A stretch of DNA of 64,000 bases from Alistipes sp. (GCA_023667265.1 JAMPAJ010000002.1:101334-165333), one strand, 5' to 3'. Positions 4,607 through 57,941 are shown, counted from the stretch's first letter. Numbers and translations: made by a program. Notes: a model not told the origin generated them from the sequence alone.

Positions 4607-6865
4607 TTATGCTGTTTCTGACGGAAGAGATTTCAGATTGCCTGCGTCATAGCTCTGGATCGCGAGAGCGTCGAGAGCCGTTATGCCGTCGCCGGGATCG
4701 CAGCAGTCCGCATTCCTTTTCTCCTGTGCGCTGAGCTGGTACTTATCTCCGTTGCCGATGTGCTGGAGCACCAGCGTTGCGTCTGAAATATCGACCTCGC
4801 CGTCGCAGTTCGCATCGCCGTAAAGGGTCTTGCTCTCCATTTCCGCGAGTATCTCCAGGTTCTGGTCATAGCTCTTGCTTTCAGCTTCGAGGGCGGGAGC
4901 TCCTTCAAGGCTCGCCTGGTAGCGGCTGTATACCTCGTCAAAATCCGATGTGTCCGTATGCTTGATGACGTACATCTGAACCGCAAGAATGTCGTAGATA
5001 TCCTTTGTCGTGCCGTTTCCGTTGATATCGAAGCCTTCCTCGATGTTATTCCATATTTCAGCCGGAAGCGCGCTGTCAGCGGCGGTTTTTCCGTTGATCA
5101 GCTCCTTCATGTATGTGTTGATCGTGAAGTAGTCGTAGAGGTCGACAGCTCCGTCCATATTGACATCGGGAGCGGCGGTAAGACCAGCATCGACGTTGTC
5201 GCAGTAGGTGAGGAAAAGCTCGTTAAGGTCGTCTATGTTGTATTTCAGCCATGCGTCGTCGTCGACCCTGAGCCCGAGCCGTGCAGCCGCCTGCTCGACC
5301 AGATAATTTATTATTCCGCTGTCAGGACGATAGTAGCTGCTGCCATAGGTCTTGATATAGTATTCCTCAGTGAAGTACTCCGGTCTCATTTCGATATGCT
5401 CAACGATATAGTGCGTCAGGTAGTAGCGGAACGTATGTACATCCCTTGACTGTGTATCTGTGAAGCGATAGCAGTCCTGCAGACCGTTGTCCTCTGTGCG
5501 CTCGACGCAATACTCTGTTATTATGCCGGGACAATGGGACATTGCCGTATCGCAGCGCTTCCATTCCTCGTTGGAAATATATCCCTTGTTTTTATCCTGT
5601 GTCCCAAGATATTCAAAGACATAGAAGACATAGAGATCGCCGATGTCAAGCTGACCGTTTCCGTTAAAGTCCAGGTCGATAGACATATCGAGTTCGTATG
5701 CGGTATTCCATTCGCCTGTCGTGTCCTCGTACATCTCGGCGAATATGTCATAGCCTGCCCGGAGGTAGTACAAGTGATCCTCCAATTCCTTGATGTAGTT
5801 GTACAGAACATTATAGTCCGTGCTGAAATCATCCATGGGGAAATCGGGGTCATAGAAGGTAGGATTAAGCTGCGCGCGTTTCACTCCGCCGTTTATTATC
5901 AGATATCTTTCGAGATGCTCTGAATCCTGGAAGTTGACCACTCCGTCGCCGTTGTAGTCTGCGATAGCCTCGATTCGCTCCCGGTCTGCGTCGTCAAGGT
6001 CTATCTTACCTAATTTCTTGTACTTCTCCGCAAAATAGTTTCTCGCGTTTTCCGCATATTTTTCGGCTAATTCCGGTCTGTCGGAATAGCTCGCATAGAT
6101 ATGCTCTATGGTCTCTTCAACGGCTTCGATCTGGCAGTATCTCTTTTCAAAGGTATAGCAGAAAAGCTTAAAGCCGTCCAGAACGTCGAAAGCTCCGTCG
6201 CCGTTTATATCGAGGTCGAGCTCGCCGCTTTCCATTTTAGCGAATATCGCCTTTTCTCCTGCCCAATATCTCGATTCGTCGATCTTGTATTCTGCGCTGC
6301 CTATTATCGGCGATGCCGAGGCTGCTATCAGTAATGCGGATGTACCTAATGCTGCGATTTTTTTCATATAGATTCTCCCTTCGGTTTCCGTCTGCGCTGT
6401 GCAGACTGTCGTACTTGGCGGAATTTCGTTTGTGTGGAGCTTTGTTTCAAGGGCTGTCTGTGTCTGCCTGGCTTCCGTGTCAGCCGATATGCCCTGGCTG
6501 TGGGGCTGCGTCTGTACCGCCGGGGCAGCCTCCGCGGTCGCTGTGCCGGGAGCAGGAGCGGTCTGTGCAGTCTCCTGCAATGACGTATCGTGATAAGGGC
6601 TCGTTCCAGGTGCAGCAGTCGTGGTCTGAGGGCTCGTTTCAGTCTCGGCAGCCGTGACAGGAATATTCATATCCGGATAATTATTATTAAGTATAACGTC
6701 AATATCCGACGTGCCCCGGACTCCGAGGCATATGAGAAGGACTGCGCAGAGCTGCGCTGCAAGGCATGAGACCCTTTTTATCCCGGAAGCCCTTCTCTGC
6801 TTCCGTTCAAGCAGCTCGTCGCCCCTTTTAAATACTCTTTCTGCAATATCCTCATAACTCTTCAT
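4607..6865 (-). CDS. Anti-sigma-like membrane protein with Pro/Thr linker, several Ca-binding dockerin-like loops and a C-terminal dockerin; possible internal start at 6367
   Basis: MKSYEDIAERVFKRGDELLERKQRR plus a TM segment, P/T-rich linker, second signal peptide MKKIAALGTSALLIAASA with RBS GAAGGGAG, five DxNGDG-type loops, C-terminal YGDANCDGEVDISDATLVLQHI...ADCCDPGDGITALDALAIQ. The longer track start (6967) lies inside the ICE end. Confidence 0.75.
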   Translation of the reverse strand: MKSYEDIAERVFKRGDELLERKQRRASGIKRVSCLAAQLCAVLLICLGVRGTSDIDVILNNNYPDMNIPVTAAETETSPQTTTAAPGTSPYHDTSLQETAQTAPAPGTATAEAAPAVQTQPHSQGISADTEARQTQTALETKLHTNEIPPSTTVCTAQTETEGRIYMKKIAALGTSALLIAASASPIIGSAEYKIDESRYWAGEKAIFAKMESGELDLDINGDGAFDVLDGFKLFCYTFEKRYCQIEAVEETIEHIYASYSDRPELAEKYAENARNYFAEKYKKLGKIDLDDADRERIEAIADYNGDGVVNFQDSEHLERYLIINGGVKRAQLNPTFYDPDFPMDDFSTDYNVLYNYIKELEDHLYYLRAGYDIFAEMYEDTTGEWNTAYELDMSIDLDFNGNGQLDIGDLYVFYVFEYLGTQDKNKGYISNEEWKRCDTAMSHCPGIITEYCVERTEDNGLQDCYRFTDTQSRDVHTFRYYLTHYIVEHIEMRPEYFTEEYYIKTYGSSYYRPDSGIINYLVEQAAARLGLRVDDDAWLKYNIDDLNELFLTYCDNVDAGLTAAPDVNMDGAVDLYDYFTINTYMKELINGKTAADSALPAEIWNNIEEGFDINGNGTTKDIYDILAVQMYVIKHTDTSDFDEVYSRYQASLEGAPALEAESKSYDQNLEILAEMESKTLYGDANCDGEVDISDATLVLQHIGNGDKYQLSAQEKRNADCCDPGDGITALDALAIQSYDAGNLKSLPSETA

Positions 6866-6877
6866 ATATAAACCTCT

Positions 6878-6902
6878 CTTGATATAAGTTCTCATAGCGA
6901 AC
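6878..6902. other. Left attachment junction of the ICE
   Basis: CTTG[AT]ATAAGTTCTCATAGCGAAC; TATAAGTTCTCATAGCGAAC is the inverted counterpart (18/20) of GTTCGCTATGAACACTTATA at the right end. Confidence 0.8.
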
Positions 6903-7059
6903 GAAAAGAACGAACAAAAACCAAAACTTTCAGACAATAGAATATTGTACAAAACAAACAAACTCACGGAATAAAATCGGTGAGTTGTTTGTATTTTCAG
7001 GGACTTTCAAAATGAAGTCCCTTTTCTTATGTCTGAAAAACGAAAACGGAGGTAGAAAA

Positions 7060-55766: not shown

Positions 55767-57377
55767 ATGCAGAACAACAACTTAAACGAACTTATCACGG
55801 CTCTTTACTGTAGGCTCTCCCGTGACGATGAACTCGACGGAGACAGCAACAGCATTGTCACACAGAAAAAAATTTTACAGAGATACGCTGACGAAAACGG
55901 ATTTGCAAATTGTCGGTTCTATGTAGATGACGGTGTGAGCGGAACTACTTTTAACAGACCCGATTTTCAAAGAATGATTTCAGACTGCGAAAATCAAAAA
56001 ATCAGTACGGTCATTGTAAAAGATATGTCCCGTTTCGGAAGAAATTATCTTGAAGTCGGTTACTATACAGAGATATTTTTCTCCGAAAAAAACATTAGGT
56101 TCATAGCTGTAAACGACGGTGTTGATACAAGCAAAGAAGCAGATGATTTTGTTCCTTTCCGCAACATCATTAACGAGTGGTATGCCAAAGACATAAGCAA
56201 AAAAATAAAGTCCTCGCTGAAAAGCAAGGGTATGTCTGGCAAACACATCAGCCGCTGTATTTACGGCTACAAGGAGGGAAAAGATAAGCAGGACTGGATA
56301 ATTGACGAGCCTGCCGCAGAGATTGTCAGACTGGTTTACAAGCTGTTCATTGAGGGTTTGGGAGTTACGGCAATTGCAAGTTATCTAAAAAGGCACAACG
56401 TTCTTACTCCTGTTGAGTATGCGAAAACAAACGGCAAATATCCCGATTGGGAAACGTTCGGAAAATGCAATTGGTGTTCCTCGACCGTTACCAAAATTCT
56501 CACTCACAGAGAGTACATAGGCGATACGGTAAATTTCAGAACTTACAAGCCGTCTTACAAGTCCAAACGTCAGATAAAGAACGATAAGGACAAGCAAGTA
56601 ATTTTTGAAAATACTCACCCTGCCATTATTGATGACGAGCAGTTTGAACTTGTTCAGAAATTATTGGTAACGAGGAAAAAGTCATACGCTGACAGAACAC
56701 CTGACCCGTTAAGAGGTTTGATATTGTGTTCCGACTGCGGAGCGAGACTGTATCTTCAAAAGCAAGTAAATCCGCGTTACGCTAATCTTGACTGCTACTA
56801 CTGCGGCACTTACAAGAGGGACAAAGACCGCTGCACAAACCACAGGGTTTTGCTTTGTGATATAAACGAAATTCTGTTAAAGGAGCTGCGTTTCATAACC
56901 GCAAAAGCGGCTGAAAATGTCAATGAATTGGCAAGGCTTTTACAGAAAAATTCCGAAAGAAGCAGCAGTACAAACTATGCTGCCTTAACAAAGGAAAAGA
57001 ACTTTTGTGAAAAGCGTATCCGTGAAATTGACGTTATGATAAAGAAGCTTTTTGAGCAGTCGGTAACAGGCGGTCTGACTTCTGAACGTTTTGCTTCTCT
57101 CACAACTGATTATGAGCAGGAGCAGAGAGAATTAAAAGAAAAACTTGCCGATATTTACTTGAAATTATCGGATTGTGAAACGAACGAAAAGAACATTGAC
57201 AGATTTATTGCTGTTGCTAAAAAGTATGCGGACTTTGAAACGCTTACCCCCGAAATCATCATTGAGTTTGTGGACAAGATTTGTGTTCATCAGGCACAGG
57301 TTGACGAGGACGGTAACAAAAGTCAGCAGTTGGATATTTATTTCAACTACATCGGTGCTTTTGAGCATAACAGCTAA
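55767..57377 (+). CDS. Large serine recombinase (TnpX/TndX-like, DUF4368 C-terminus)
   Basis: [10 protein letters not shown] (catalytic Ser), [27 protein letters not shown] zinc ribbon, [18 protein letters not shown]; RBS GGAGG. Confidence 0.95.
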
Positions 57378-57393
57378 TTGCAATCTCACCTTT

Positions 57394-57420
57394 GTTCGCT
57401 ATGAACACTTATAATGTTCA
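57394..57420. other. Right attachment junction of the ICE
   Basis: GTTCGCTATGAACACTTATA[AT]GTTCA; inverted partner of the left junction. Confidence 0.8.
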
Positions 57421-57941
57421 AGCTTTGCTTTAAGGGACTGCTTCGCCCGGTAGAGCAGATATGTTATCTGGCGGTTGGTCTTGCCCATTATCCTGGCTGC
57501 CTGGGAGGTGTCGAAATCCTCAAAATATATCAGATATAGCACCTGTCTGTATTCCGGCTTAAGCCTCTGGATCGTCCTGTGGAGCATGAGCCTCTGCTCG
57601 TTTTTGATATGCTCCCGTTCTATTTCCTCCTTGTCCGCAAGACTATAGAACTCCTCAATGGGGACAGAGACCGTCCGTTTATTTTTCCTGATGAAGTCGA
57701 TTGCAGTAAATCTTGCAATTGAATAAAGCCAGGTTTTGAATGAGCTTTTCCCGGAGAACCGGGGCTTATTGACATAGAGCTTTACGAATACGTCCTCAGC
57801 TATCTCCTCGGCAGCGCATATATTATCGACAAGGCTGTTCACGTACAGCACGATGCCGTCCCTGTATTCGCGGATCATATCAGTCAGAGCATCTTTATTC
57901 CCTTCGAGAAAACGGCGGTAGCTACTTGCACCGTTATCCAT
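57399..57941 (-). CDS. Host ECF sigma factor with its C-terminus replaced by ICE sequence
   Basis: AEEIAEDVFVKL..FKTWLYSIAR; region 4 YRQVLYLIYFEDFDTSQAARIMGK..YRAKQSLK; ends HYKCS* inside the ICE inverted repeat. Confidence 0.9.
   Translation of the reverse strand: MDNGASSYRRFLEGNKDALTDMIREYRDGIVLYVNSLVDNICAAEEIAEDVFVKLYVNKPRFSGKSSFKTWLYSIARFTAIDFIRKNKRTVSVPIEEFYSLADKEEIEREHIKNEQRLMLHRTIQRLKPEYRQVLYLIYFEDFDTSQAARIMGKTNRQITYLLYRAKQSLKAKLEHYKCS

Follow-up and report, generated by a model that had tools for sequence, protein, structure and literature searches.

A complete integrative conjugative element with a TndX-like recombinase within the final codons of a Ruminococcus ECF sigma gene

We analyzed a stretch of 64,000 nucleotides (nt) of DNA (GCA_023667265.1 JAMPAJ010000002.1:101334-165333, filed under Alistipes sp.; called the window throughout), in which an integrative conjugative element (ICE) interrupts a gene for a sigma factor of the extracytoplasmic function (ECF) type. 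The explanation that we hold to be very probable is that a complete ICE of ~50.5 kb with a TndX-like large serine recombinase inserted at a TG core in a pseudo-attB site within a Ruminococcus ECF sigma gene, and that this insertion is incidental rather than an evolved switch. The ICE spans 6882-57416 (50,535 bp including one copy of the core) and has a GC fraction of ~0.40, compared with 0.43-0.48 in the flanks. An initial annotation made from the window had placed an ICE within the last codons of an ECF-type sigma gene, and had proposed that it parts this gene by 50 kb from a coupled, dockerin-bearing partner. Both proposals were borne out: the right end of the ICE bears a large serine recombinase, the partner is membrane-anchored, and translational coupling is supported by a 14-nt overlap of the two genes in 9/9 related pairs. 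The insertion is of a known kind and well delimited; the further suggestion of that annotation, that it acts as a regulatory switch, is not supported.

Position of the crossover and reconstructed attachment sites

The flanks of the ICE, joined at the TG that stands at 6880-6881 and again at 57415-57416, give a sigma gene that ends in ...KAKLEQERFIYEEL* and encodes 184 amino acids (aa) with the tail LEQERFIYEEL. Among the best 120 sigma relatives, which range from 180 to 212 aa, 90 are 184 aa long, nearly all carry a tail of the form LE(K/Q)E(G/R)FxYExL, and the closest ends in LEQERFIYEEL; the unrelated tail (YKCS) occurs in the window copy only (1/120). Uninterrupted sites in five related loci (L001-L005), whose sigmas are 77-83% identical to that of the window, read AAAGCTTGAACAAGAGAGGTT(C/T), which is the TG join. 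Metagenome contigs were also compared, from a run that contains the full window sequence (X1) and from two sister runs of the same study (X2 and X3), by matching them to short stretches of the window at 95% likeness. Contigs of X2 and X3 match the ICE at 100% identity as far as 57416, where they diverge, continuing as CGAGAGGTTCTGG... in X2 and as GTTGAGGTAAAGG... in X3, while at the left end an X2 contig has an unrelated flank followed by identity to the window from 6879/6880. The base preceding TG is not the same at the two element ends, nor is the base following it the same in the different flanks, and the crossover core is hence read as exactly the 2-bp TG. Cores of 2 bp are expected of serine recombinases.

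The reconstructed attP is TGTTCGCTATGAACACTTATAA-TG-ATATAAGTTCTCATAGCGAACG, with arms of 22 nt; the predicted junction may also be written ...ACTTATAA-TG-ATATAAGTTC... and GTTCGCTATGAACACTTATAA-TG-ATATAAGTTCTCATAGCGAAC. The chromosomal pseudo-attB is AACCTCTCT-TG-TTCAAGCTTTGC, predicted to read GCAAAGCTTGAA-CA-AGAGAGGTTTATATATG on the gene strand. No gaps are needed to align this attP with a circular or tandem junction observed in a contig from a related element (L020), whose recombinase is 75% identical. Beyond its recombinase gene this contig reads ...ACTTATAA-TG-ACATAGGTTTTCACTGCGAAC, and homologues of the window's left-end genes come next, including a DUF3801 protein (90% identity) and a replication-initiator-like protein (65%). 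The attL/attR/attP/attB set with its TG core is now exact.

Two other joins had been offered by the initial annotation. The first, at AT, had the right reading frame and the wrong position: it adds a CAT (His) codon that is present in no empty site, which makes the sigma 185 aa long, and its attP is 3 bp shorter than the observed attP of the related element. The second, at TATAA, is 8 bp longer than the empty sites and fuses sigma and partner, and no fused protein was found among the best 120 relatives. The empty sites of relatives had been set beforehand as the comparison by which that annotation could be refuted, and they differ from both of its reconstructions. A junction call made from one sequence was misled here by an AT-rich region with several spurious microhomologies. 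Other particulars of the same annotation held. The inverted ends at 6883-6902 and 57394-57413 agree, as reverse complements, at 18 of 20 positions; the frame ...ERFIYEEL*, with its stop at 6852-6854, overlaps by 14 nt the start of the partner gene (MKSYE, at 6865), as translation confirmed; and the sigma gene in its integrated state (57399-57941, minus strand, 180 aa) ends KAKLEHYKCS*, with the stop inside the element arm.

The full arms of 22 nt are imperfect inverted copies of one another, agreeing at 18 of 22 positions. A degenerate 19-nt pattern of the arms had two matches in the 64-kb window, which are the two ends (0.00 expected by chance). JGI metagenome contigs were also scanned with the arm pattern GTTCGCTATGARMACTTAT; the three matches, none with an ICE context, were set aside as chance.

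Assembly could in principle have produced the arrangement, as a chimeric metagenome contig joining the ICE to an unrelated chromosome. The source is apparently a metagenome with hundreds of thousands of contigs per run, and the ICE is found in other contexts in the sister samples. Independent Logan contigs of X1 nevertheless span both the left (38,237 nt) and the right (15,710 nt) junction with no differences and at equal depth (12.8-13.3), and joining the flanks restores an intact sigma/partner operon that matches the empty sites exactly, which a chimera would not yield. Such an artefact is therefore extremely improbable.

The recombinase and its choice of targets

The recombinase (relatives 534-540 aa) showed Pfam matches to PF00239 (88 bits), PF07508 (81 bits), PF13408 (35 bits) and, at residues 492-558, to DUF4368 (PF14287; 77.3 bits). 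DUF4368 is present in 63% of the clade of multi-targeting large serine recombinases, which includes the TndX-like transposases, compared with 0.73% of the site-specific ones (PMC10083194). By its domains, the recombinase is assigned to this multi-targeting, TndX-like clade of low specificity. It is predicted to be capable of integration and excision, as the circular or tandem junction of the related element in L020 would indicate.

To the right of the window's ICE, three different flanks occur (one each for the window, X2 and X3). Identical copies of one recombinase protein (P0125), 75% identical to that of the window, were found with four distinct flanks and with an attP, and those of another (P0132; 73% identical) with seven distinct flanks; recombinases 73-75% identical to that of the window occupy at least 10 different sites. 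When representative genomes were scanned with the recombinase protein a single relative was found (L006; 92% identical), and it lies at a non-sigma site. The depth in X2 was 18-21x for the ICE compared with 3-5x for the host flank, and this difference, with the 100% identical ends in other contexts, may reflect transfer of the ICE between cells. The ICE is complete, apparently recently mobile and no domesticated remnant, and its insertion in the sigma gene looks like one recent event among many possible ones.

The X2 insertion lies inside a conserved motif (IIQNLSQLKKMY / EISANVIIQNLSQLKKMYKDSW) of the type IV coupling protein (T4CP) of some other conjugative element. The P0125 element was found at the same site in two T4CP alleles, and the T4CPs end in ...QNLS+HYK, which may be compared with ...KLE+HYK in the sigma. 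At least two related ICEs, that of the window (in X2) and the 75% identical relative, truncate T4CP genes at one spot, the motif IIQNLSQL(K)KMY (loci L014:4124-4200, L015:2712-2790, L019:4124-4200 and L028:4124-4200); in L028, which holds a 73% identical relative, the flank is closely similar in DNA to the T4CP site and may likewise lie in a T4CP gene. The ICE's own T4CP has diverged at the motif position (ASIILQSKSQLKAIY, half-site CGATTTGGAC). The T4CP motif could be a preferred 'home' target, as Fic is for TndX, or could reflect competition between elements.

When the half-sites are read outward from the core, A(A/G)GT is common at positions 5-8, and the sigma half-site AGAGAGGTT closely resembles the coupling-protein half-site CGAGAGGTT. 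X1 also contains at least one paralogous sigma/partner pair, on a contig of 33,106 nt with twice the depth (26.9) that was matched at window 6826-6866 and 57862-57936. Its junction reads ...GAGCTTGAAAGAGAGGGTTTCAGC and would not be expected to recombine, because its centre is AG instead of CA. The sigma site was probably used for the resemblance of its half-site to family-preferred sites and not for any regulatory function of the sigma.

Consequences for the sigma gene and its partner

The sigma protein matched PF04542 and PF08281 only (regions 2 and 4) in Pfam and scored 89.8 bits against the NCBIfam model TIGR02937 for sigma70-ECF, for which the cut-off is 42.9. The exchange runs from residue 176 to the end, where five residues (HYKCS) stand in place of the native last nine (QERFIYEEL), and since the matches to the region 4 model end at residues 170-176, domains 2 and 4 are untouched. 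Upstream, the motif GCAAC-N16-CGACT looks like an autoregulated promoter of the ECF type and is the only candidate for a promoter of the two-gene operon.

The partner begins MKSYEDIAERVF... and consists of a conserved cytoplasmic N-terminus of ~35 aa (MKSYEDIAERVFKRGDELL..RKQRRA), one membrane helix, a Thr/Pro-rich linker, many EF-hand-like repeats and a type I dockerin at the C-terminus. Nine related pairs were examined, at loci both orthologous and paralogous; among their sources are two Ruminococcus flavefaciens-type genomes that each have two pairs within a few kb. All consist of a 184-aa sigma followed by a partner of 309-773 aa, with the 14-nt overlap in every one; the partners share the N-terminal consensus M(K/R)SY(E/D)DIAERVF.KGDEIL..RQ(K/R).A..I(K/R) and the membrane helix, and their ectodomains vary. 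The pair is a member of a large paralogous family, as yet uncharacterised, in bacteria that resemble Ruminococcus flavefaciens. This anatomy fits a single-pass anti-sigma factor, and from its context the partner may be one. No anti-sigma family was found in it by Pfam or NCBIfam, even with E values up to 10 allowed on the N-terminus, and no described Ruminococcus ECF/dockerin anti-sigma system was found in the literature searched.

As we envisage the event, the DUF4368 recombinase would have joined attP and the pseudo-attB at the 2-bp TG core. Only nine sigma codons follow attB, and the ribosome-binding site (RBS) of the overlapping partner comes directly after it, so that integration has cut the partner gene off from the only ECF-type promoter at the locus. 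The partner would then be poorly or not transcribed while the ICE is integrated, and one sigma/partner pair would be deregulated, if the partner is an anti-sigma factor. Excision would restore the operon exactly, which would be incidental, as it is true of any serine-recombinase insertion. Both the RBS of the partner (GAGAGG) and its ATG at 6865 lie inside the orphaned 3' end of the sigma gene and are retained, and the DNA in front of them is now the ICE left end. A consensus scan of the final 290 nt of the ICE on this side showed no outward promoter-like site, and the stretch folds into two stable hairpins on the partner strand (z = -5.06). Read-through toward the partner is not expected, because the ICE genes at 7061-43259 all lie on the opposite strand. 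The partner gene has likely lost its promoter, and, with the 14-nt overlap kept in all nine pairs, the uncoupling is real.

It is possible, though we think it doubtful, that the insertion is silent: the HYKCS-tailed sigma would work normally, and an unrecognised promoter, either at the end of the ICE or in the 3' portion of the locus, would still drive the partner, leaving regulation as it was. The partner has retained an RBS and start codon of its own, the sigma domains are intact, the tail may be conserved only for its overlap with the RBS and start of the partner, and consensus promoter scans are weak evidence, with promoters other than those of the sigma-70 type outside their range. This explanation has to contend with the lack of an outward promoter-like site within 290 nt of the junction, with the two hairpins that stand between, with the opposite strand of the ICE genes, and with the overlap itself, which argues for expression coupled to that of the sigma.

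On the other side of the ICE, the putative sigma promoter would read, in the integrated state, past the new stop into the element, antisense to the recombinase gene, and no terminator-like site was seen near the junction on the sigma strand; conversely, transcription of the recombinase would leave the element and cross the sigma gene in antisense. One could imagine a rewiring in both directions, in which the sigma is freed of its partner and constitutively active on its own promoter, and antisense transcription from that promoter into the recombinase gene lets a host envelope/cellulosome signalling pathway modulate excision. As a separate matter, the recombinase family might preferentially disrupt the coupling-protein genes of rival conjugative elements, so that elements would compete with one another. 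We consider these ideas very improbable.

The initial annotation had likened the arrangement to the skin element, with excision and integration acting as a switch on a cellulosome-associated ECF system. It is true that excision at TG would rebuild the operon precisely, that the recombinase is in the same broad class as SpoIVCA and SprA, that the sigma has lost its conserved C-terminal tail and that the partner is cut from its promoter. The insertion is nevertheless a singleton among the best 120 relatives (one interrupted), and the site is unoccupied in five related loci. The recombinase is one of a multi-targeting family and the same ICE is found elsewhere in the sister samples X2 and X3; the ICE is a full conjugative element and not a domesticated remnant; and sigma domains 2 and 4 are untouched, which leaves no inactive halves for excision to rejoin. 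Several paralogous pairs are present per genome, so one copy is dispensable and would not serve as a checkpoint. A switch of this kind is, in our view, very improbable.

We therefore return to the incidental insertion by a TndX-like recombinase as the preferred explanation. Several points weigh against it. The half-site consensus was drawn from eight half-sites, the loss of partner transcription is deduced from consensus promoter scans, and the anti-sigma role of the partner is read from its context. The empty sites are those of relatives with differing neighbour genes and not of the same strain, and the source sample is known from contigs, not reads, so that rare excised attB and attP forms lie beyond their reach.

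The insertion does not seem to embody a new principle of regulation. It supplies an exact attL/attR/attP/attB set for a rumen Ruminococcus ICE with a multi-targeting serine recombinase, and a naturally occurring polar insertion that parts an ECF sigma gene from the dockerin-bearing partner coupled to it. A comparison of strains with and without the ICE would offer a ready-made knock-down of the partner, and hence a test of its anti-sigma role.

Other genes of the window and comparison with known systems

The features of the window are collected in Table 1. Within the defined ends the ICE carries a relaxase, a coupling protein, a VirB4-type ATPase, mating-pore proteins and an integrase, and it also encodes a topoisomerase, a second coupling-protein homologue, a C5 methylase and a Toprim/DUF3991 primase-like protein. 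The second coupling-protein gene (23468-24736, 422 aa) was considered as one cut by a nested element and this was rejected, as the motif region is present and the gene end is normal.

Table 1. Coordinates of the ICE, its ends and the genes discussed (positions in the window)
Feature	Position	Strand	Basis or remarks
Partner gene, 752 aa	4607..6865	-	Translation; Pfam Dockerin_1, 49.1 bits
Orphaned native sigma 3' end, CA-A GAG AGG TTT ATA TAT GAA GAG TTA TGA = QERFIYEEL*	6852..6881	-	Matches EGFxYExL/QERFIYEEL tails of relatives
Left copy of the 2-bp crossover core TG (attL)	6880..6881	+	Empty sites L001-L005; X2 contig
Integrative conjugative element	6882..57416	.	Pfam annotation; boundaries from empty sites and sister-sample contigs
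P' arm (left inverted end), ATATAAGTTCTCATAGCGAACG	6882..6903	+	
Two strong hairpins in the non-coding ICE left end, terminator-like on both strands, between ICE interior and partner gene	6951-6995, 6999-7022	.	Folding, z = -5.06
Coupling protein	9638-11476	+	Within conjugation core 9638..15605
VirB6-like TrbL_2	11801-12748	+	Conjugation core
PrgI	12761-13150	+	Conjugation core
VirB4-like ATPase	13086-15605	+	Conjugation core
Relaxase, MobA/VirD2 nuclease domain	52477-53838	-	
NikA/MobC-like accessory protein	53840-54223	-	
Large serine recombinase, 536 aa from ATG at 55767	55767..57377	+	Resolvase, Recombinase, Zn_ribbon_recom, DUF4368
P arm (right inverted end), TGTTCGCTATGAACACTTATAA; source of the final four codons (YKCS) and stop of the chimeric sigma	57393..57414	+	
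ECF-type sigma, 180 aa integrated / 184 aa native, regions 2 and 4 intact	57399..57941	-	Pfam, TIGR02937
Right copy of the 2-bp crossover core TG (attR)	57415..57416	+	X2/X3 contigs; empty sites
ECF-type promoter-like motif GCAAC-N16-CGACT upstream of sigma	57979..58004	-	Kept in orthologous loci; sole strict match in window
Divergent neighbour, BspA-type leucine-rich-repeat protein with dockerin	58173..60530	+	Pfam

Several further genes of the ICE were noted. A single open reading frame (ORF) of 3206 aa (30451-40071, plus strand) combines an Eco57I-type methylase region (~1576-1688) with ResIII/SNF2/Helicase_C domains (~2240-2771); we take such giant methylase-helicase proteins to be typical of large conjugative elements of Firmicutes. 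It is followed at 40138-41564 (plus strand) by a gene for an ICE-borne ECF-like sigma (173 aa, regions 2 and 4), a small ORF and a gene for a DUF4367 protein. Relatives of the ICE have a Sigma70_r4 gene upstream of the recombinase, and one relative is inserted beside a DUF4367 gene (L016, L017 and L021). The minus-strand cargo block includes a 469-aa protein (43320-44729) with an N-terminal PBECR4 nuclease domain (Barnase/EndoU/colicin/RelE-like), which may be a toxin or defence gene. A 645-aa protein (47663-49600, minus strand) fuses a weak radical-SAM match (residues 105-222) to ParB N-terminal and HTH domains (398-559), a fusion unusual for a partition protein, and a ParA gene lies nearby at 50149-50928. 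Inside the left end, the sequence CAGACAA(T/C)AGAATATTGTACAA, with the palindrome TTGTACAA, is kept in the window (6920-6950) and in L020 (1790-1815) although the DNA around it differs between the two; an operator or promoter of the left-end genes may lie in this sequence.

In the host flank, the gene for a leucine-rich-repeat protein with a dockerin that lies divergent to the sigma has counterparts that often adjoin paralogous sigma/partner pairs. To the left of the partner, at 708-4094 (minus strand), are genes for an ABC exporter with a C39 peptidase (802 aa) and a separate ABC ATPase (232 aa), presumably a combination typical of bacteriocin or peptide export; these exporter genes are absent beside the related sigma/partner loci examined.

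The sigma/partner pair may be compared with SigI-RsgI and sigma24C-Rsi24C of Clostridium thermocellum, which are pairs of an ECF sigma and a single-pass anti-sigma factor through which cellulolytic clostridia sense polysaccharide. Like these, the pair of the window couples a small alternative sigma to a single-pass membrane protein with a short cytoplasmic N-terminus and a variable, cellulosome-related extracellular domain, and many paralogous pairs occur per genome. The partner differs in carrying a dockerin in place of a carbohydrate-binding or glycoside hydrolase module, and its N-terminus matches no known anti-sigma family.

Among elements that interrupt host genes, skin (recombinase SpoIVCA) in sigK of Bacillus subtilis and SPbeta (SprA) in spsM split their genes into non-functional halves; each occupies one fixed site in its lineage, excision is under developmental control, and skin is a defective remnant. 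The ICE of the window is likewise a large-serine-recombinase element in a sigma or other host gene, and precise excision would rebuild that gene. Unlike skin and SPbeta, it exchanges only the last nine codons, is a singleton insertion, has a multi-targeting recombinase and is a complete ICE.

Close parallels are also found in the clostridial conjugative or mobilisable transposons Tn5397 (TndX) and Tn4451 (TnpX), which also have a large serine recombinase at the element end. Tn5397 and the ICE of the window share a 2-bp core, inverted ends that resemble the target, and a recombinase with DUF4368 in the multi-targeting clade (PMC10083194), the likeness to TndX being one of domains, core, ends and target use rather than of measured sequence relatedness. 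The core is TG in the ICE of the window and GA in Tn5397, and the ICE, at ~50 kb, has a far larger conjugation module that is not Tn916-like, with a topoisomerase, the 3206-aa SNF2/methylase protein and ParAB. TndX shows a strong preference for a sequence encoding a Fic domain and otherwise requires only the central dinucleotide (PMC4430133). The strongly preferred target of TndX is Fic (PMC4430133) and that of the family of the window ICE may be the QNLSQL motif of coupling proteins, each a conserved protein-coding motif, and both use, in addition, many secondary sites that share little beyond the core.

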